Origin: an uncultured Bacteroidales bacterium
Lineage (GTDB): Bacteria > Bacteroidota > Bacteroidia > Bacteroidales > S143-33
Direction of reading: 5' to 3'
Length of the DNA: 49,112 nucleotides
Assembly: GCA_964637235.1 (NCBI GenBank)
Contig: CAZWVR010000004.1
Location: forward strand, 1-49,112
Made by a program: the position numbers and the translations under genes. Positions 12,589 to 34,513 of the stretch are shown piece after piece. Position 1 is the first letter of the stretch. Every line of letters starts with the position of its first letter. The notes beneath the pieces were generated by a model, which did not search any database, was not told the DNA's origin, and saw only the letters and a list, made by a program, of their open reading frames with translations.

Positions 12589-13788
12589 TTATTTAATCAC
12601 ACCGAATTCTTTGCCTACTTTTATGAATGCTTCGATGGCTTTATCCAGATGTTCTTTTTCATGGGCAGCTGAGAGTTGAACACGTATTCTTGCTTCGCCC
12701 TTAGGTACTACTGGATAGAAAAATCCTATTACATAAATTCCTTCGTCAAGCAGACGTGCTGCAAAATCTTGGGAAAGTTTAGCGTCGTATAGCATTATAG
12801 CTACAATTGCCGATTGGGTGGGTTTTATATCAAAACCAGCTTTGCTTATTTTTTCTTTAAAATATTCTGCGTTCCACATTAGTTTATCTCTTAATGCAGT
12901 AGTCTCATTAAGCATATTAAAGACTTCAATAGCTGCACCGACAATCATAGGTGAAAGTGCATTAGAAAATAGATATGGTCGTGAGCGTTGGCGCAACATT
13001 TCAATGATTTCTTTTCTGCCAGTAGTGAAGCCGCCCATTGCTCCTCCGAGAGCTTTACCTAAGGTGCTGGTTAATATATCTATTTCACCCATTACATTAT
13101 GATATTCTGGCGTTCCTTTACCATGTTTTCCTATAAATCCTGAGGCATGGCTGTCGTCAACCATTACCAAAGCATCGTATTTTTTTGCTAATCTTACTAT
13201 TTCTGGCAGATTAGCTATATCGCCGTCCATAGAGAATACTCCGTCCGTTGCAATTATTTTAAATCTGGCTCCATCGGCATTTGCTTTTTGCAGTTGTACT
13301 TCTAAGTCTGCCATGTCTGCGTGCTTAAATCTGTATCTTTTAGCTTTACATAAACGAACTCCGTCAATTATAGATGCATGGTTTAATTGGTCTGAGATAA
13401 TTGCGTCTGCTTCGTTAAATAAAGGCTCAAATACTCCTCCGTTTGCATCAAAAGCTGCTGCATATAAGATTGCATCGTCCATTCCGAAAAATTCTGCTAT
13501 TTTGCTTTCTAATTCTTTGTGAATATCTTGCGTACCGCATATAAAACGAACTGAGGACATTCCATATCCGTGTGTGTCCAATGCTCGTTTTGCAGCTTCA
13601 ATCACTCTTGGGTGTGAGGAGAGCCCAAGATAATTGTTTGAGCAGAAATTAAGAACTTTTCTGCCATCTGCAAGGGTAATTTCTGCTCCTTGCGGGGATG
13701 TGATTATTCTCTCTTCTTTGTATAAACCCGCTTTTTTAATACTTTGTATTTCATCAAAGAGAAATTGTTTAAATTTAGGACTGTACAT
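12589..13788 (-). CDS. kbl: glycine C-acetyltransferase (2-amino-3-ketobutyrate CoA ligase)
   Basis: 399-aa ORF with the class-II aminotransferase/alpha-oxoamine synthase layout: NNYLGLSSHP, DDSHASGFIG, and the PLP-lysine region TSTLGKALGG. The N-terminus (LYKEERIITSPQGAEI) matches Kbl. Confidence 0.85.
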   Translation of the reverse strand: MYSPKFKQFLFDEIQSIKKAGLYKEERIITSPQGAEITLADGRKVLNFCSNNYLGLSSHPRVIEAAKRALDTHGYGMSSVRFICGTQDIHKELESKIAEFFGMDDAILYAAAFDANGGVFEPLFNEADAIISDQLNHASIIDGVRLCKAKRYRFKHADMADLEVQLQKANADGARFKIIATDGVFSMDGDIANLPEIVRLAKKYDALVMVDDSHASGFIGKHGKGTPEYHNVMGEIDILTSTLGKALGGAMGGFTTGRKEIIEMLRQRSRPYLFSNALSPMIVGAAIEVFNMLNETTALRDKLMWNAEYFKEKISKAGFDIKPTQSAIVAIMLYDAKLSQDFAARLLDEGIYVIGFFYPVVPKGEARIRVQLSAAHEKEHLDKAIEAFIKVGKEFGVIK

Positions 13789-27350: not shown

Positions 27351-27379
27351 TTTAGAACAAAAATTTTTTTTAGTCTAAA
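27351..27379. promoter_or_regulatory. candidate TetR operator (inverted repeat TTTAGAAC-N14-GTCTAAA) upstream of the tetR-like gene
   Basis: The half-sites match the better palindrome at 28003-28031. The site ends 3 nt before the regulator's ATG. Confidence 0.4.
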
Positions 27380-27381
27380 AA

Positions 27382-27969
27382 ATGACAAAAAAAGAACAAG
27401 TACGTTATTTTCTTATAAATATTGCTCAGAGAATATTTTCGCGTTTGGGTTATGATAGAACAACAATGGAGATAATAGCTAGAGAAGCAGGGAAGGGGAA
27501 AAGTACGCTTTATTATTATTTTAAAAATAAGGAAGAAATTTTTGCAGCAGTTATAGAGCAGCAGGGTAAAAAAATACAAAATGAACTTTTGAAGATAATC
27601 AATCAAAATATTGATACTAGAAAGCTTTTGAAGAAGTATGTGCTGAAACGCTATCAGCTTGTAAATGAGCTTATAAATTATTACAATGTTCTCAAAGATG
27701 ATTATTTACGGAATATGCCATTGGTAGAGAAATATCGTAAACAGCATGATGAATTTGAATTTATGGCAATAAAAAATATTCTTATAAAAGGGATTGATAG
27801 AGAAGAGATAGGTATTGATGAACATAAAATAGACGATGTTGCAATGGCAATAGCCGTAGCAATAAAAGGGTTAGAAATTCCAGTTTTTTTTGATCACGGA
27901 ATTAGAGAATTTGAGAGTAAAATAGATATGTTGATAGATGTTCTTTTTGATGGAATAGCTAAAAAATAG
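27382..27969 (+). CDS. TetR/AcrR-family transcriptional regulator
   Basis: 195-aa ORF. N-terminal HTH (FSRLGYDRTTMEIIAREAGKGKSTLYYYFKNKEEIF) followed by a helical ligand domain. Confidence 0.85.
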   Translation: MTKKEQVRYFLINIAQRIFSRLGYDRTTMEIIAREAGKGKSTLYYYFKNKEEIFAAVIEQQGKKIQNELLKIINQNIDTRKLLKKYVLKRYQLVNELINYYNVLKDDYLRNMPLVEKYRKQHDEFEFMAIKNILIKGIDREEIGIDEHKIDDVAMAIAVAIKGLEIPVFFDHGIREFESKIDMLIDVLFDGIAKK

Positions 27970-28002
27970 ATGTTCTAATAGTTCATATTTTTTTTACTAT
28001 TT

Positions 28003-28031
28003 TTTAGACCATAAAACGAATTTAGTCTAAA
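28003..28031. promoter_or_regulatory. candidate TetR operator (TTTAGAC-N15-GTCTAAA) upstream of the MMPL gene
   Basis: Perfect 7-bp inverted half-sites lie 18 nt upstream of the MMPL ATG. The same half-site sequence occurs at 27351-27379. Confidence 0.45.
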
Positions 28032-28048
28032 ATTCAAAAAATATAATT

Positions 28049-30316
28049 ATGAAAAAGTATTTGTCTAAGTTTACTTTAAACCTTGCTGAAAATATCGTCA
28101 AGTTTAAAGTTCCAATTTTTCTGATAGTGCTTATTTTGACGGTTTTGTTTGGTTATTACGCTACTGAAATCAAGATAGATTCTGATATTTTAAATTCTTT
28201 GCCCAATGATGATAAATATGCAAAGTTGTATAAAGAGATAGGCAATAGATATGAAAGTAATTTAGCAGTTATGGTAATATTGGAAACGGATAATGTTTTG
28301 CAGCCAAAAGTTTTAGAGGATATTCGCACAATAACAGATACTATTGGGGATATAGACGGAGTATCAACAGTTTCAAGCCTTACTAATATCATAAACATTA
28401 AAAGCTCACAATGGGGTTTAGAAATAGGTAAATTAGTTGATGAATATAATTTGCCTAAAACTGATAAACAGTTGGATTCATTGGCAAAGATAATTTTTAA
28501 CGATGATATGTATAGAGGGGTAATAGTTTCTGAGGATACATCTGCTACGATGATAGTTGCTAATTTAAAACCAGACGCAGACAAGCAGAAAGTAGCACGT
28601 GAAATTGAACAAAAAGTTAAAAGTCTAAATTTGAAGGAAAAAGTATATTTTACAGGCATACCTGTTTTACTTGAACAGACTAATAGCATAATATTTAGAG
28701 ACTTATTTAGATTATTACCCATAGCCACCTTAGTGATAATATTCATTTTGTTTTTAGGTTTTAGAAGTTTTAGGGGAGTAATCTTGCCTTTGTTAATAGT
28801 TGCTATTTCTATTATATGGACAGTTGGTATTATGGCTATTGTAGGCTCTAAATTTACCATTGTCTCCGATATTATTCCGGTAATCCTTTTAGCATTAGGC
28901 AGTGCTTATACTATACACATTTTAAACAAAATAAATAAGCAAAAGGAGTATGAAGGGAGAAAAAAGCTTGTAATAGCATTATCGGTTATTTTAATTCCGG
29001 TATTTTTAGCATACATTACGACAGCTTTTGGGTTTATATCTTTTATTTTTGGTTCTTATCTACTTAGTATAAAAAATTTTGGAATTTACACAGCCATAGG
29101 TATTACCTTAGCTTTTGTACTGTCTGTATTATTAGTTCCTGCGTTTTTAGATTTATTTAAATCTTATGAAAGTCATGATAAATCGGATAGTGGACAAAAG
29201 GGAAGTTTTTCTCTTAGATATATTGCGAAAAGTGTTATTAAGAAGCCTAAGTATTATATAGGATTTTGGCTAATATTGGCATTGTTGAGTGCTTTATGGA
29301 TTGGCAAAATACAGCGCCGTGTTGATATGTTGAGCTATTATAAAAAGGGTAGTAGTGTGCGAGTGGCTCAGGAGGTTGTAGATAAAAAATTTGGAGGTGT
29401 TACGCCTGTATTTGTTCTGTTTGATGGGGATGTTCAATCTCCTGAATTTTTAAAGATAATGAAAACTATTGAGGATACGATTAAAGCTAATCCGTATGTG
29501 AATTATACTATGTCTGTTGCGGATTTAATTGCACGAATGAATAATGCTATGGGAGAAGGCTATAAAATACCATCCGAGCGTGATAAAATAGAACAATTGT
29601 GGTTCCTATTAGATGGGCAAGATATTATGCCTCAGTTAGTTAATGATGATTTGACAGAAGCTGTTATTCAAGCGCGTTTTGGAAGTTTAGACACAAAGCT
29701 TAATAACAATTTTGCTTCTTTTCTTGAAAAAATAGCTCAAAAATATAGTTCTGATAGCATAAAAATAACCGTCACGGGTATGCCGTATATATACAGGAGT
29801 TTGGATAGAAGTTTGATACGCAGCCAGTTTATAAGTCTATTACTTGCGATTGTTTTAATGTTATTTATTGTTTCTTTGACTATGTGGTCTTTTCGCAGTG
29901 GTTTGCTTTCTTTAATCCCTCTTGTAATAACTATAATTATCTCTTTTGGTTTTATGGGGTTTGTGCATATTCCATTAGATATTGTAACAGTCTTAGTTGC
30001 AAGTGTGACTATGGGCGTCGGGATTGATTATGCTATCCACGTAATTAGTCATTATAATACTTATCGCTCTGAGGGTTTAGATATAGAAGCGGCTATTGAG
30101 GAGACTATAAAAACCACTGGTACAGCTATTTTGATAAATGTTTTTGCTGTTGCCTTTGGATTTTTGACTTTATTATTTTCCAATTTGGCTCCTTTGCGCC
30201 ATTTCGGCTTGATGATGGCTTTAACTATGATAATTGCAGGTTTTGCCTCTTTGACATTTTTAACAGCGACTATTGTTCTCATTGATAGGAAAAAGAGTTC
30301 TCTTGATAAAAAATGA
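28049..30316 (+). CDS. MMPL/RND-superfamily (SSD-type) inner-membrane transporter
   Basis: 755-aa ORF with two blocks of ~6 TM helices, each preceded by a large soluble loop. This is the duplicated topology typical of MMPL/HpnN-like exporters (for example GSAYTIHIL... and MGVGIDYAIHVISHY). Confidence 0.8.
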   Translation: MKKYLSKFTLNLAENIVKFKVPIFLIVLILTVLFGYYATEIKIDSDILNSLPNDDKYAKLYKEIGNRYESNLAVMVILETDNVLQPKVLEDIRTITDTIGDIDGVSTVSSLTNIINIKSSQWGLEIGKLVDEYNLPKTDKQLDSLAKIIFNDDMYRGVIVSEDTSATMIVANLKPDADKQKVAREIEQKVKSLNLKEKVYFTGIPVLLEQTNSIIFRDLFRLLPIATLVIIFILFLGFRSFRGVILPLLIVAISIIWTVGIMAIVGSKFTIVSDIIPVILLALGSAYTIHILNKINKQKEYEGRKKLVIALSVILIPVFLAYITTAFGFISFIFGSYLLSIKNFGIYTAIGITLAFVLSVLLVPAFLDLFKSYESHDKSDSGQKGSFSLRYIAKSVIKKPKYYIGFWLILALLSALWIGKIQRRVDMLSYYKKGSSVRVAQEVVDKKFGGVTPVFVLFDGDVQSPEFLKIMKTIEDTIKANPYVNYTMSVADLIARMNNAMGEGYKIPSERDKIEQLWFLLDGQDIMPQLVNDDLTEAVIQARFGSLDTKLNNNFASFLEKIAQKYSSDSIKITVTGMPYIYRSLDRSLIRSQFISLLLAIVLMLFIVSLTMWSFRSGLLSLIPLVITIIISFGFMGFVHIPLDIVTVLVASVTMGVGIDYAIHVISHYNTYRSEGLDIEAAIEETIKTTGTAILINVFAVAFGFLTLLFSNLAPLRHFGLMMALTMIIAGFASLTFLTATIVLIDRKKSSLDKK

Positions 30317-30906
30317 TAATTATGAAACAGCTTATTAGTCTGTGTATCATATTATTACAAATGCCTATTTGGGCACAACAATGGGTATTGCGTGAAAATC
30401 AGCAAGGAATAAAGGTTTGGACTCGTAATGAAAATGGGAAAATTGAGGTTAAAGCCCAAACTTTCGTAAATGCCTCTGTGCGAGATGTTTTATCACTAAT
30501 AGAAAAGCCCTCTACTTATCATCTGTGGGTAGATATGGTTAGTAAAGCTAAACTATTATCTTATGGAAATGAGAAGTTTACAGTATGGTATTTAATTGAT
30601 ATGCCTTGGCTTTTTTCTGACAGAGATTTTGTTTTGGATAATATTCTTGCTCATAATGGAGATACAATAATTGTCAAACTCAAAAGTGCCCCAGATAGAT
30701 ATCCTAAGCAGAAAAATATTGTAAGAGTACAAGATGCTTATGGGAAATGGATTTTATTTCCTTACGGTAAGCGTACGTTTGTCTCTTATCAGTTCTATGC
30801 CGATATGCAATTGCCTGTTTCTAATTCCTTAATAGAAATATTGTCTGTTTCTGCACCTTTTAATACTTTTCAAAATTTAAAAACAATGTTAAATCATAAA
30901 AAATAA
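30313..30906 (+). CDS. secreted START/SRPBCC-like lipid-binding domain protein
   Basis: Signal peptide (LISLCIILLQMPIWAQQ). The WVLRENQQGIKVWTR...YHLWVDMV...WYLIDMPWLFSDRDFV pattern resembles START domains. The start overlaps the MMPL stop (ATGA). Confidence 0.5.
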   Translation: MIIMKQLISLCIILLQMPIWAQQWVLRENQQGIKVWTRNENGKIEVKAQTFVNASVRDVLSLIEKPSTYHLWVDMVSKAKLLSYGNEKFTVWYLIDMPWLFSDRDFVLDNILAHNGDTIIVKLKSAPDRYPKQKNIVRVQDAYGKWILFPYGKRTFVSYQFYADMQLPVSNSLIEILSVSAPFNTFQNLKTMLNHKK

Positions 30907-30911
30907 GAGCT

Positions 30912-31640
30912 ATGAGAACAAAATTTTCTTTAATTGTAATTATGTTTCTTGTTTCATTTTTGTTTCAAACAAAAGCCCAGACGGCATCATCTGTATTACA
31001 AAAGGTTGATGAAATAACCTCTGCACCCAAAGATTTAAACCAGAAGCTTGTTATTACTTTAATAGATAAAAAAGGACGTAAGCAAGTGCGTAAAGCATTA
31101 TTTTGGCAAAAAGGAACTCAAAAACGTTTGTTCAAATTTACTGAGCCTGCTTCCTATAAAGGTATTGCTTTCCTTTCTTTACCTAATAATGTGATGTATT
31201 TATATATGCCTGCATATGGTAAAGAAAGACGAATTGCTTCAAGTGTGAAAAACCAAAAGTTCGCTGGCACAGACCTCTCCTATGATGATATGGAAGCTAA
31301 AAAATATACTGATAAATATAAGGCTGTAAACTTGAAAGTTGAAGGCAACTATTATATTCTGACATTAACCCCAAAAGCTAAATCTGCTTATTCCAAAATA
31401 ATTTTGAAGGTAAATAAATCTGATTACTTGCCTGTTTATACAGAAATGTATGATAAAGCAGGTCATAAAATTAAAACTATGGAAACGACTTTTAAAAAGC
31501 AAGGGAAATATTGGATTGCACAGAAGATTGTAGTTAAAGATTTGAAACGAAATCATTCTACTATCTTAGAAAATATTGAAACTCAGTTTGATACTAATCT
31601 CTCTGATGATATTTTTACTGTGAGAAATATGAAACAATAA
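30912..31640 (+). CDS. LolA-like outer-membrane lipoprotein-sorting / lipid-carrier protein (DUF1329-like)
   Basis: 242-aa ORF with a signal peptide. The size and the pattern (..R.ALFWQKG.QKRLFKFTEPASYKGIAFLS...MYLYMPAYGKERRIAS..KNQKFAGTDLSYDDM) are typical of LolA-like proteins found next to MMPL exporters. Confidence 0.6.
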   Translation: MRTKFSLIVIMFLVSFLFQTKAQTASSVLQKVDEITSAPKDLNQKLVITLIDKKGRKQVRKALFWQKGTQKRLFKFTEPASYKGIAFLSLPNNVMYLYMPAYGKERRIASSVKNQKFAGTDLSYDDMEAKKYTDKYKAVNLKVEGNYYILTLTPKAKSAYSKIILKVNKSDYLPVYTEMYDKAGHKIKTMETTFKKQGKYWIAQKIVVKDLKRNHSTILENIETQFDTNLSDDIFTVRNMKQ

Positions 31641-31658
31641 ATCTAAAAATATAAAGCT

Positions 31659-33041
31659 ATGAAAAAACTTAGTTTTTTCCTGATAAGCTTGGCTTTTTTC
31701 TATTGTCTTGTCTCTGATGTATATGCTCAGGGAGATTCTAATGCTCTGCAAATAACAGGCTATTTAATGTCTGACCAGAGAATACTTACTGATAATGCTA
31801 AATGGTTCTGGAATGAAAATCGCCTGAATATAGCAATGGACAAAAAATTATCCGGAGCATTGGATTTTCATACTCAATTGTGGATTAGAAATATTGGCTT
31901 TCCTTCTGTTCATAATTTGAATATGCTATCTAATAAGCATAATATCAATTATTTAGATTTGGAACTTAGGGAGTTTTATGTTAAAGTATATAATTTTTTA
32001 GTGCCAAATTTGGATATGACCATAGGTCGTCAGATAATAGAATGGGGCACTGCTGATAAAATTAATCCAACAAGTAATGTTTCTCCCTATGATTATGAAG
32101 ATATTTTGGATTTTGGGCGTAAGCGGGGTAATGAAGCTCTGAATTTAGTTTATACTTTTGGGAAAAATAAAGATTTTTATTTACAAGGAATATGGGAGCC
32201 ATTTTTCCGCCCTGATAATTTGCCTATATATCCTTATTCACAGCTATTGAGTTTTTCTCCTAAAAGTTTACCTGCAATGTCTCTATTAGCTTATTCAGAT
32301 TCGTTAATTATGCCTTCGTATTCTCTTAAAAATTCTATTGCTGCATTTAAATTAAAAGGATTTGCTTTTGGCACAGATTGGTCATTGAGCTATATTTATA
32401 CATTTGACGGTTTGCCTATGCCTTATCAGGCTGATTACTATATGATAAGTCCGAATACTTTGAATTTGAATTTAAAAATGACTTATTATCGTGAACATAT
32501 TATTGGAGCGGATTTTTCAACAAATATATTTGGTGCCGGATTCTGGGGAGAAGCTGCCGCTTTTATCCCAAAAAAGGATGTGTCTTTTTCAGCATTTTTG
32601 CATACACCAAATCCAATTATGCCATTACAAAAACTTGCAGATAGTATTATTTTGCAAAAAAATAAACCTTTTTTTAAATACGTAGTAGGTTTTGATTATA
32701 ACTTTCCTTATGATTTTTATATTCATCTGCAATATGTTCACGGTTTTACTTTCGAGAGAGGAGCAGATAATCTAAATGATTATTTTTTCTTTAATCTTGA
32801 TAAATCTTTATTTTATGGCAAATTGAAGCTTAGTCCTGCTACTGTGGCATTTATCGTAAATGATTGGAATGATATCGCTAATAATTATGTTTTTGCTTAT
32901 TTTCCGAGCTTGGTTTATAAGCCTGTGGAGGATTTAGAACTGAATTTATCTGGTGCTTATATAACTGCTAAGGGAGATCAAATATTTGCTAAATTGAAAG
33001 ATTGGAATATGGTGCAGTTTCGTGTTAAATATTATTTTTAA
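31659..33041 (+). CDS. putative outer-membrane beta-barrel (DUF1302-like)
   Basis: 460-aa ORF with a signal peptide. It has a GRQIIEWGTADKINPT motif like DUF1302-type barrels, alternating aromatic/polar strands and a C-terminal aromatic residue (..VKYYF). Confidence 0.5.
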   Translation: MKKLSFFLISLAFFYCLVSDVYAQGDSNALQITGYLMSDQRILTDNAKWFWNENRLNIAMDKKLSGALDFHTQLWIRNIGFPSVHNLNMLSNKHNINYLDLELREFYVKVYNFLVPNLDMTIGRQIIEWGTADKINPTSNVSPYDYEDILDFGRKRGNEALNLVYTFGKNKDFYLQGIWEPFFRPDNLPIYPYSQLLSFSPKSLPAMSLLAYSDSLIMPSYSLKNSIAAFKLKGFAFGTDWSLSYIYTFDGLPMPYQADYYMISPNTLNLNLKMTYYREHIIGADFSTNIFGAGFWGEAAAFIPKKDVSFSAFLHTPNPIMPLQKLADSIILQKNKPFFKYVVGFDYNFPYDFYIHLQYVHGFTFERGADNLNDYFFFNLDKSLFYGKLKLSPATVAFIVNDWNDIANNYVFAYFPSLVYKPVEDLELNLSGAYITAKGDQIFAKLKDWNMVQFRVKYYF

Positions 33042-33046
33042 TTTTT

Positions 33047-33302
33047 GGGCGTTCCCGCCGCTGACGCAAAACCCTCGCTACGGCGGTCGGGTGCTCCGCT
33101 TATATTCGGCTGTGGCTCGCAGGTGGCACTAATTCGCTCGGCTCATTAAGGCGGAACGGCAGCAGGCTGACGCCTGTCAGCACGTCCGCCTAAAATTCGC
33201 CTCGCTTTGCGGTGCGTGGGGCTTCGCTCTACGCTCAGCCTCCGCCCGCAAAGTGCCACAATTCTGCTCGCCTTCGCCTCATATCGCTTCGCCCCCTAAC
33301 GC
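33047..33302. repeat. GC-rich ~250-nt noncoding element, copy B
   Basis: It begins GGGCGTTCCC and ends CCCCCTAACGC, which are the reverse complements of the ends of copy A. The core at 33198-33252 matches copy A. Hairpins lie at 33055-33086, 33149-33191 and 33166-33181 (GCTGAC-GCCT-GTCAGC). It fills the gap between convergent genes. Confidence 0.85.
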
Positions 33303-33312
33303 AGAACATACA

Positions 33313-34389
33313 TTAAAATTTATACACTATTGCATTAATGTTCATACCTGCCCCTATTGAGGTAAATACTGCGTAATCACCTTCTTTGAGTGTATGACCT
33401 TCCATTTTACCACGAAGTATTAAATCTAACATTGTTGGTATTGTAGCCACTGAGGAATTTCCAAGCCATCCTATGGTCATTGGCATTATTTCCGGTGGAA
33501 ATGTCTTATATCCATATAATCTAAATAGTCTTTTTACTATTGCACTGTCCATCTTTTCATTTGCCTGATGAATTAGTATTTTTTTTATTTTTTCTAATGG
33601 AACACCGGCTTTATCAATAGCTTTTTTTACAACATCTGGAACATTCTTTAATGCATATTCATATACTTTATGACCGTGCATCTTGGTGAAAAAATTATGC
33701 TCCCCTTTATAATCAGGATTTAATGAATGATTATTGTATATATAAAATGCTTCATTATAGGCATCATTGCGTGTTTGATGGGAGACTATTCCTATCGGTT
33801 CTTCACTTTCTACAGCTTCTAAAATTGTTGCACCCGAACCATCTGCAAATATCATTGAATCTCTATCGTGTGGATCCATAAAATAGGATAAAACTTCTGC
33901 TCCTATGATAAGTGCTCGTTTTACCTCGCCGGATTTTATATAGTAATTAGCTATTGTCATTGCTAATATCCAACCCGGGCAGCCAAAAACTACGTCATAA
34001 GGTATACAGTATGGATTTTTTATGCCTAAATAATGTTTTACTCTTGCTGCAAGGGCTGGAACCATATCTGAATGTCTATTTTGATCTGCATCTCCGTAAT
34101 TGTGAGCTAAAATAATTAAATCTATACTCTCCGGATCAATACCTGCATTTTCTATAGCTTTACGTGCTGCTTCTGTGGATATATCTGAATTTTTTTTACC
34201 TTCTTCCACATAGCGCCGTTCTTTTATTCCTGTTATCTCGTAAAATTTTTGTATCGTCTCCTCAGGAGATTTTTCTATCCGTTTACCGTATGTTTCAAAA
34301 AAATCATTGTTTATAAAATCTTCGTTTTTTATTACTCGCGGGGCTATATAACTACCAGTTCCGATAATTTTTGAATAGATTTGTGCCAT
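33313..34389 (-). CDS. beta-ketoacyl-ACP synthase III family protein (FabH-like)
   Basis: The catalytic triad context is present: FGCPGW (Cys), IHQANEKM (His), GNSSVATIP (Asn). The start is set at the ATG at 34389 (MAQIYSKIIGTGSY) rather than 34440. Confidence 0.8.
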   Translation of the reverse strand: MAQIYSKIIGTGSYIAPRVIKNEDFINNDFFETYGKRIEKSPEETIQKFYEITGIKERRYVEEGKKNSDISTEAARKAIENAGIDPESIDLIILAHNYGDADQNRHSDMVPALAARVKHYLGIKNPYCIPYDVVFGCPGWILAMTIANYYIKSGEVKRALIIGAEVLSYFMDPHDRDSMIFADGSGATILEAVESEEPIGIVSHQTRNDAYNEAFYIYNNHSLNPDYKGEHNFFTKMHGHKVYEYALKNVPDVVKKAIDKAGVPLEKIKKILIHQANEKMDSAIVKRLFRLYGYKTFPPEIMPMTIGWLGNSSVATIPTMLDLILRGKMEGHTLKEGDYAVFTSIGAGMNINAIVYKF

Positions 34390-34513
34390 AACAGAAGTTT
34401 TTGATTGCCAAAGGTATAAAAAAAAATATTTTCTAAACATTTTTCTGATTACTGATCTCTCTTTTTTTATGATTTTATCAAAATTTTTTTGGAAATAACA
34501 GGCTTTTTATTTT

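Follow-up and report, generated by a model that had tools for sequence, protein, structure and literature searches.

A cassette of five genes at positions 27351-33041 of contig CAZWVR010000004.1 (GenBank assembly GCA_964637235.1, from an uncultured deep-sea bacterium of the order Bacteroidales) probably serves to export a lipid, or a molecule resembling one, to the outer membrane; judging from sequence, structural models and gene neighborhoods, we put the probability of this reading at roughly 0.6. The whole stretch that was analyzed, positions 1 to 49,112 of the forward strand, is referred to as the window. The cassette encodes a TetR-family repressor, a transporter of the RND superfamily, a secreted START-domain protein, a periplasmic carrier of the LolA_like family and an outer-membrane beta-barrel related to DUF1302. 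Its core, TetR-RND-LolA_like-barrel, is not new: it is widespread, has been noticed before and is present in the window as a short version of a known cassette. The novelty here is the START-domain carrier that is added to this known kind of cassette. The features are the following (window coordinates, strand, product and basis of the assignment):

27351-27379, no strand: candidate TetR operator 1, TTTAGAA-N15-GTCTAAA, adjoining the start of tetR
27382-27969, + strand: TetR-family repressor, 195 amino acids (aa) (PF00440 TetR_N)
28003-28031, no strand: candidate TetR operator 2, TTTAGAC-N15-GTCTAAA without mismatch, 18 nt ahead of the RND start codon
28049-30316, + strand: inner-membrane RND-superfamily transporter, MMPL/HAE3-like, 755 aa (PF03176)
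30313-30906, + strand: secreted START-domain (helix-grip) lipid-binding protein, 197 aa (match to PDB 3qsz, AlphaFold (AF2) model)
30912-31640, + strand: periplasmic LolA_like protein, 242 aa (PF17131; newer Pfam name 'TP_0789-like')
31659-33041, + strand: outer-membrane beta-barrel of a divergent DUF1302 branch, 460 aa (family profile, AF2 model)

All five open reading frames (ORFs) reside on the + strand and are spaced by 79, -4, 5 and 18 nt. The stop codon of the pump gene and the ATG of the START gene overlap by 4 nt (ATGA), and even if an alternative ATG located 9 bases downstream is used, the gap to the pump gene is only 5 nt. GC content and GC content at third codon positions (GC3, 0.23-0.27) are alike across all five genes, START included. 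Contigs from an independent study published in 2025 cross both the pump/START and the START/LolA_like junctions with zero differences, and the arrangement is thus real and not an assembly artefact. The best-matching sequencing run is labeled as a hydrothermal vent metagenome. The START, LolA_like and barrel proteins each carry one N-terminal hydrophobic segment that ends in AQ. Neither the five products nor those of neighboring genes matched the membrane fusion protein (MFP, HlyD) or TolC-like outer-membrane efflux protein (OEP, outer membrane factor) families in Pfam and NCBIfam. Lacking both an MFP and a TolC-like factor, the cassette does not qualify as a tripartite HAE1-type RND system as exemplified by AcrAB-TolC.

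The pump matches the MMPL family (PF03176) in two stretches (173.5 bits, 7.6e-51) and additionally a sterol-sensing domain. Its best NCBIfam model is HAE3 (TIGR00921), reached with 315.2 bits and therefore not counted as family membership at the cut-off of 351.9 bits; other models are much further away (MMPL actII, 180 against 875 bits; HpnN, 144 against 752 bits). Among structurally characterized proteins, Dispatched, HpnN, NPC1, MmpL3/4/5 and Patched are its relatives in the PDB. The hydropathy profile, read from crude windows and not from a topology predictor, gives a first transmembrane helix (TM1), a loop of about 180 aa, a cluster of helices, TM7, a second loop of about 170 aa and a second cluster. 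TM4 holds an aspartate ('SDIIP') and TM10 an aspartate-tyrosine pair ('GIDYAIH'). With its two repeats, the twelve-helix layout and two large periplasmic loops, the protein belongs to the MMPL/HAE3 branch of the RND superfamily.

The LolA_like protein reaches 161.9 bits on PF17131 (cut-off 30 bits) and has solved relatives in PDB entries 9tp6, 3bk5, 3buu and 4z48. Its signal peptide is type-I-like, ends in KAQ|T and has no lipobox. It falls short of the curated equivalogs LolA3 (NF053579, 39.6 vs 83 bits) and Flavobacteriia LolA1 (NF053572, 27.4 vs 100 bits). The barrel protein, which has a signal peptide and a C-terminus reading ...KYYF, itself scores 17.3 bits on DUF1302 (PF06980, cut-off 23.2 bits), and this match is confined to residues 98-148, within which the motif GRQIIEWGTAD lies. 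Of 38 members of its family, 35 gave a DUF1302 match at E<=1e-3 (6.4e-10 at best), and matches to other families were absent. More than 516 homologues with about 45% identity were found, mostly in metagenome-assembled genomes of Bacteroidales. The AF2 model contains only beta structure, and Foldseek relates it to porins with a probability of 1.0. No solved structure exists for DUF1302, and a DUF1302-DUF1329 complex has been predicted by AF-Multimer with an interface score (ipTM) of 0.84 (PMC13499233).

The START protein alone yielded no Pfam match at E<=0.01, and a word-based homologue search recovered only the protein itself. It does match a START structure from Xanthomonas (PDB 3qsz) at 1.6e-16, and an exhaustive HMMER search identified 2021 homologues, all of about 200 aa, the nearest of which are 38-41% identical. 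PF01852 (START) was matched by 28 of 30 homologues, which places the family among START domains. A profile of the family matches STARD10 (1.7e-22), PCTP (4.5e-18), StAR, CERT and STARD3. The AF2 model is of high confidence (predicted local distance difference test, pLDDT, 94.1) and superimposes on 3qsz with TM-scores of 0.80/0.88 and a root-mean-square deviation of 2.0 Å. All top Foldseek hits were START proteins, and the 40 hits following 3qsz were eukaryotic START domains. An N-terminal hydrophobic segment is common to all members of the family; that of the window protein ends in ...PIWAQ|Q. Bacterial START proteins have, to our knowledge, neither a ligand nor a function assigned to them, and 3qsz is a structural-genomics entry. 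Taken together, five co-oriented, tightly spaced genes, an inner-membrane MMPL/RND transporter, a secreted START/SRPBCC-like lipid-binding protein, a LolA-like carrier and a DUF1302-like barrel had all been proposed from the DNA sequence alone in an original prediction, and all of these assignments hold.

To assess conservation, 201 genomes of the same order were sampled, 20 barrel loci were fetched from them, and a species-level scan with the barrel, using one genome per species, added 80 further loci. Of the 201 genomes, 53 have the barrel family, about 23 of these its close subfamily, and 46 have the START family. The order TetR-RND-LolA_like-barrel is kept wherever the contig allows it to be judged, the LolA_like gene always following the RND gene and the barrel gene always coming last. 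The species-level loci include those of the cultured strains Marinilabilia salmonicolor MSL42, Petrimonas sulfuriphila DSM 16547 and Prolixibacter denitrificans DSM 27267. The expectation that the genes co-occur in other genomes is thus borne out for the core genes, in strict order and in about 100 genomes, and not for the START gene. In 26 of the 80 species loci, the LolA_like gene is followed directly by the barrel gene, and 22 of these are complete minimal cassettes. Seven loci have an ORF of 148-150 aa in between (secreted product; L122:8463-8909, L079, L086, L088, L117, L123 and L134), and the one that was scanned encodes a DUF2141 protein. It may represent an alternative small periplasmic accessory in a slot comparable to that of START. 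Four loci were uninformative.

In about 43 of the 80 species loci, the LolA_like gene is separated from the barrel gene by genes for lipid enzymes. The enclosed products comprise KAS III, an SDR, a PlsC-type acyltransferase, a patatin-like lipase, two GT2 glycosyltransferases, a methyltransferase that is closest to fatty-acid and phthiotriol O-methyltransferases, and a 373-aa GNAT-like protein. An enclosed O-acyltransferase passes the NCBIfam equivalog for GlsA, the lyso-glycine-lipid O-acyltransferase (278 vs 260 bits). Some loci also enclose genes for a radical SAM enzyme, an ACP, a CDP-alcohol phosphatidyltransferase, GtrA and an alpha-oxoamine synthase. Those of the enclosed patatin, GT2, KAS III and PlsC-type proteins whose N-termini were inspected by eye show no obvious signal peptide. 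The transport genes bracket a set of cytoplasmic lipid enzymes, which speaks for export of the product of these enzymes.

Two side observations concern enzymes of these expanded cassettes. The radical SAM/SPASM-type enzyme (L001:1898-3412; also L054, L080 and L141) gives a weak match to PF17131, and the LolA_like proteins of the cassettes match this enzyme at about 1e-14; it may be a fusion to a lipid-binding LolA-fold domain. The window itself encodes, at 12598-13788 on the - strand, a 41%-identical homologue (tblastn) of the serine-palmitoyltransferase-like alpha-oxoamine synthase of the cassettes, and a second copy resides on contig C1. A role as first-step enzyme of sphingolipid or aminolipid synthesis is possible.

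The carrier and the barrel also occur together in a different setting. In genome G178 (L046:11829-19453), a TetR gene heads a locus with LolA_like, two MacB/FtsX permeases, an ATP-binding cassette (ABC) ATPase and a DUF1302-like barrel. Since the pair is here combined with a MacB/FtsX-type ABC transporter that replaces the RND pump, LolA_like and the DUF1302-like barrel appear to form a periplasm-to-outer-membrane module that works with different inner-membrane motors. TetR-LolA_like-FtsX is also present at a contig end of the window's own genome (C41:17048-19360), which for this reason probably holds a second, ABC-driven cassette.

The regulator is a member of the TetR family (PF00440, 54.8 bits vs a cut-off of 24 bits) that reaches no specific NCBIfam equivalog, and nearly every complete cassette of the relatives starts with a TetR gene. 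When the 2.67-Mb assembly was scanned with at most one mismatch allowed, the 29-bp palindrome TTTAGAC-N15-GTCTAAA occurred only twice, in front of tetR and in front of the pump gene. These two sites support autoregulation of tetR plus repression of the operon, the argument being solely the uniqueness of the candidate operator within the genome. A search for the palindrome at the cassettes of relatives did not find it, as divergence of the TetR proteins, whose identity is 64% at most, would predict.

The analysis shows the folds, the order of the genes and how well it is conserved, the uniqueness of the candidate operator in the genome and the repeated, independent placement of START genes beside such cassettes. 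From this we infer the direction of transport, the order of hand-over and the cargo, and propose the following sequence of events. TetR would bind the two palindromes and be released by a hydrophobic ligand. The MMPL/HAE3-like pump, driven by the proton gradient as deduced from its relatives MmpL3 and HpnN, would lift the cargo out of the inner membrane into its own periplasmic domains. Periplasmic carriers would then receive it, namely LolA_like in every cassette and, in this lineage, also START, whose gene is translationally coupled to that of the pump. Finally, the carriers would pass it on to the DUF1302-type barrel, by which the cargo would be inserted into the outer membrane or cross it. 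Because lipid-enzyme genes are enclosed in about 43 of 80 species, an acylated lipid made by the cell itself is suggested, and we tentatively favor an acylated amino- or glyco-lipid as the cargo class.

Several observations weigh against lipid export. The genome of the window organism has neither a biosynthetic insert in the cassette nor the patatin/PlsC/GT2 set, and homologues of a few of the enclosed enzymes are dispersed over other contigs; the cargo may consequently not be the same as in the expanded clusters. For the barrel, the model reaches only moderate confidence (pLDDT 68.5), with TM-scores to porins of 0.33-0.46. No promoter or terminator could be assigned, as a scan for sigma-70 promoters and terminators did not rise above background; the Bacteroidota -7 motif TAnnTTTG gave 89 matches vs 80 expected and none in the two intergenic regions. 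A search for RNA sequencing runs that cover the region found none. The phenotypes of proteobacterial relatives concern exogenous compounds, i.e., monoterpenes, Tween 20, butyl stearate and a C28 alkane (PMC6394551, 10.1101/2020.07.04.188060, PMC6304351). Induction of a Porphyromonas gingivalis operon by stress and iron limitation (13- to 136-fold in low iron, and 84-fold for PG1181 under nitric oxide; PMC10434189, PMC11018363), like TetR control, equally fits an inducible efflux or stress function. Finally, the START gene is missing from the cassettes of G188 and G052, both of the same family, and from the 80 species loci, and no cassette occurs within 9 kb of START at 15 of the 20 loci from other genomes. 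What the original prediction had said about a complete lipid-export relay stands with respect to the folds, the co-occurrence of the core genes and the lipid genes enclosed in relatives; START as a regular relay component and a contribution of a nearby FabH-like gene do not.

The main rival, which we regard as rather unlikely, is an inducible efflux or tolerance system of the AmeABCD kind that is directed against foreign hydrophobic toxicants such as solvents, terpenes, free fatty acids or hydrocarbons of the vent fluid. TetR would sense the toxicant, and START together with LolA_like would act as periplasmic sinks. Such a function would agree with TetR control via two candidate operators, with a minimal cassette devoid of biosynthetic genes, with the hydrothermal vent as sampling site and with the strong stress induction of the P. 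gingivalis operon, which has the same annotated products. In addition, Castellaniella defragrans tolerates monoterpenes less well once AmeABCD is deleted and then shows a stronger influx of Nile Red (PMC6394551). However, lipid-synthesis enzymes that are enclosed in about half of the related species are hard to square with a xenobiotic pump, and the START branch resembles carriers of phospholipids and ceramide.

A further question is whether START belongs to the cassette at all. At its position inside the cassette, START is found in this lineage only, and G052 carries its START gene on another contig. At the same time, START genes adjoin LolA_like/DUF1302 cassettes in four other Bacteroidales genomes. 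In G069 and G153, START directly follows the barrel gene, in G018 the order is TetR-START-TetR-RND-LolA_like-patatin-GT2-barrel, and in G178 a START-DedA(VTT)-DUF218 string converges on the ABC-driven cassette. Seventeen of the sampled genomes hold both families; they include four of the five START-linked genomes, the barrel match of G178 being under the threshold. By chance, 0.057 adjacencies would be expected among these 17 genomes, and the probability of four or more is 4e-7. A START tree does not unite the cassette-linked genes in one clade; their distribution requires five changes, the same number as with shuffled labels. The window protein, which has a long branch, groups with those of G069 (linked) and of G052 and G082 (both unlinked), with support values of 98/96. 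Since START is absent from the 80 species loci yet adjoins cassettes repeatedly elsewhere, these sequence comparisons present it as an optional accessory that was recruited repeatedly and not as a core part of the cassette.

Alternatively, START might be a mere passenger, i.e., a general periplasmic lipid-homeostasis protein whose gene landed in the operon and which does not work with the pump, the carrier and the barrel. This is in line with the fact that most START-family genes reside elsewhere without a consistent partner, with the location of the orthologous gene of G052 and with the long branch of the window protein. We nevertheless consider it quite improbable: five separate juxtapositions of START and cassette contrast with 0.06 expected, the gene is fitted between its neighbors with a 4-nt overlap and a 5-nt gap, its composition is native, and the arrangement is kept in populations that were sampled by two independent studies. 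A general linkage of START genes to another transporter was rejected, as a Pfam tally of neighbors (n=63) revealed no recurring partner; the sole recurring domain was the type IX secretion system tail (Por_Secre_tail, 8/63), which we take as background.

Two observations on START genes of other genomes are recorded here. The string in G178 spans L046:9636-11733. DedA/VTT proteins have been implicated in lipid flipping, and their proximity hints at membrane-lipid handling by the START family. In G052, a 1467-aa ORF (L034:1049-5452, - strand) located 1.5 kb downstream of the START gene combines a complete RND pump of the AcrB type (ACR_tran, residues 17-1035) with a C-terminal OEP domain (1297-1465). 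Unless it is a sequencing artefact, this is an unusual pump-channel fusion.

Uptake, whereby the barrel would admit a hydrophobic nutrient or membrane lipid, carriage inward would fall to LolA_like and START and insertion into the inner membrane to the RND protein, finds some backing in Pseudomonas putida DUF1302/DUF1329/BNR/RND mutants that are unfit on Tween 20 and butyl stearate and in a Thalassolituus MMPL-LolA fusion that is induced on the C28 alkane along with a neighboring porin-like protein, but is very improbable: we know of no RND member established as an inner-membrane importer, the biosynthetic inserts in relatives favor outward transport, and catabolic genes do not flank the window cassette.

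Returning to lipid export, a more specific version may be considered. RND/LolA_like/DUF1302 could conceivably constitute the missing outer-membrane route for the acyloxyacyl aminolipids of Bacteroidia or their glycosylated derivatives, which would be made by the GlsA-type, PlsC-type, GT2 and KAS III enzymes whose genes are enclosed in many species, with START recruited as a true periplasmic lipid-transfer protein. We regard this as speculative and on balance doubtful. If true, it would provide the first functional setting for a bacterial START domain and the first defined cargo class for DUF1302 cassettes. Our analysis bears on how non-lipopolysaccharide lipids of Bacteroidota (glycine lipids, flavolipin and sphingolipids, among others) are delivered to the outer membrane and to vesicles, and on the function of DUF1302/LolA-like/RND cassettes, whose cofitness was reported in 2016. 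What the comparison adds to these two questions is a cargo hypothesis, founded on transporter genes that physically enclose lipid-biosynthesis genes in about half of the species examined; the three cultured strains, all of which carry the expanded cassette, allow this hypothesis to be tested by lipidomics. Moreover, the repeated recruitment of START suggests that bacteria make periplasmic use of a 'eukaryotic' lipid-transfer fold.

Downstream of the cassette, the following gene was of interest:

33313-34440, - strand: FabH-like (KAS III-like) gene, converging on the cassette

The convergent orientation is as originally described, while the proposed function, supply of an acyl primer for the cassette, is unsupported. 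A link was rejected since no orthologue lies beside the cassettes of relatives, the identity to the enclosed KAS III is only about 25% and GC3 is different (0.45 vs 0.23-0.27 in neighboring genes). This shift in GC3 may reflect high expression or foreign origin. The protein stays below the curated FabH cut-offs (212 vs 249 bits and 198 vs 292 bits). Its gene lies beyond a GC-rich intergenic repeat element (33047-33302), which was covered at 20-40 times the depth of the flanking contig in three metagenome runs and exhibited many variant joints, both of which agree with a repeat family present in multiple copies.

Among known systems, operons of the P. gingivalis PG1178-81 type are related by the annotated product names and their order only (TetR, MMPL, lipoprotein-sorting protein with a name of the PF17131 type, hypothetical protein). 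Both hosts belong to the Bacteroidales, and the P. gingivalis TetR reportedly regulates its own unit. In contrast to the window cassette, these operons have no START gene, and some contain extra genes for ABC ATPases; what is known of them comes from expression data alone. Aryl-polyene and flexirubin gene clusters follow the same concept, that is, a dedicated LolA-fold carrier that is encoded among genes for lipid or pigment synthesis and brings the product to the outer membrane. Aryl-polyene clusters also include an MMPL pump. In Flavobacterium johnsoniae, LolA2/LolB2 serve flexirubin export (PMC11885536). However, the outer-membrane partner in these clusters is a LolB-like/DUF3261 lipoprotein and not a DUF1302 barrel, the enzymes are others, and the likeness is one of concept. 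The START protein of the window has the helix-grip fold in common with PCTP/STARD2, STARD10, CERT, StAR and 3qsz, human START domains superimposing on its model with TM-scores of 0.69-0.76. It differs from eukaryotic START proteins in being secreted, single-domain, bacterial and encoded inside an envelope transporter operon.

The closest counterparts are the AmeABCD system and the cofit clusters of DUF1302, DUF1329, BNR (COG4447) and RND (COG1033) genes in Shewanella, Kangiella and Pseudomonas (10.1101/072470; 10.1101/2020.07.04.188060). Clusters of this kind had been called functionally uncharacterized. They are indeed poorly understood, but an AmeABCD deletion, cofitness data and the induction data from P. 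gingivalis do exist. Like the window cassette, they combine an HAE3-like pump, a periplasmic protein of the LolA superfamily and a DUF1302-type barrel, have neither MFP nor TolC and are linked to hydrophobic substrates. On the other hand, neither DUF1329 nor a BNR/COG4447 propeller was found in or beside the window cassette, which therefore is not of the AmeABCD type. The carrier is a PF17131 protein of 242 aa instead of a DUF1329 protein of about 450 aa, the barrel is short (460 aa), divergent and below the Pfam cut-off for DUF1302, and the gene order is reversed, with the pump first and the barrel last in the window. The regulator is TetR instead of LuxR, and START is added. The window cassette is thus a shorter architecture that works like the AmeABCD type and yet is distinct from it.

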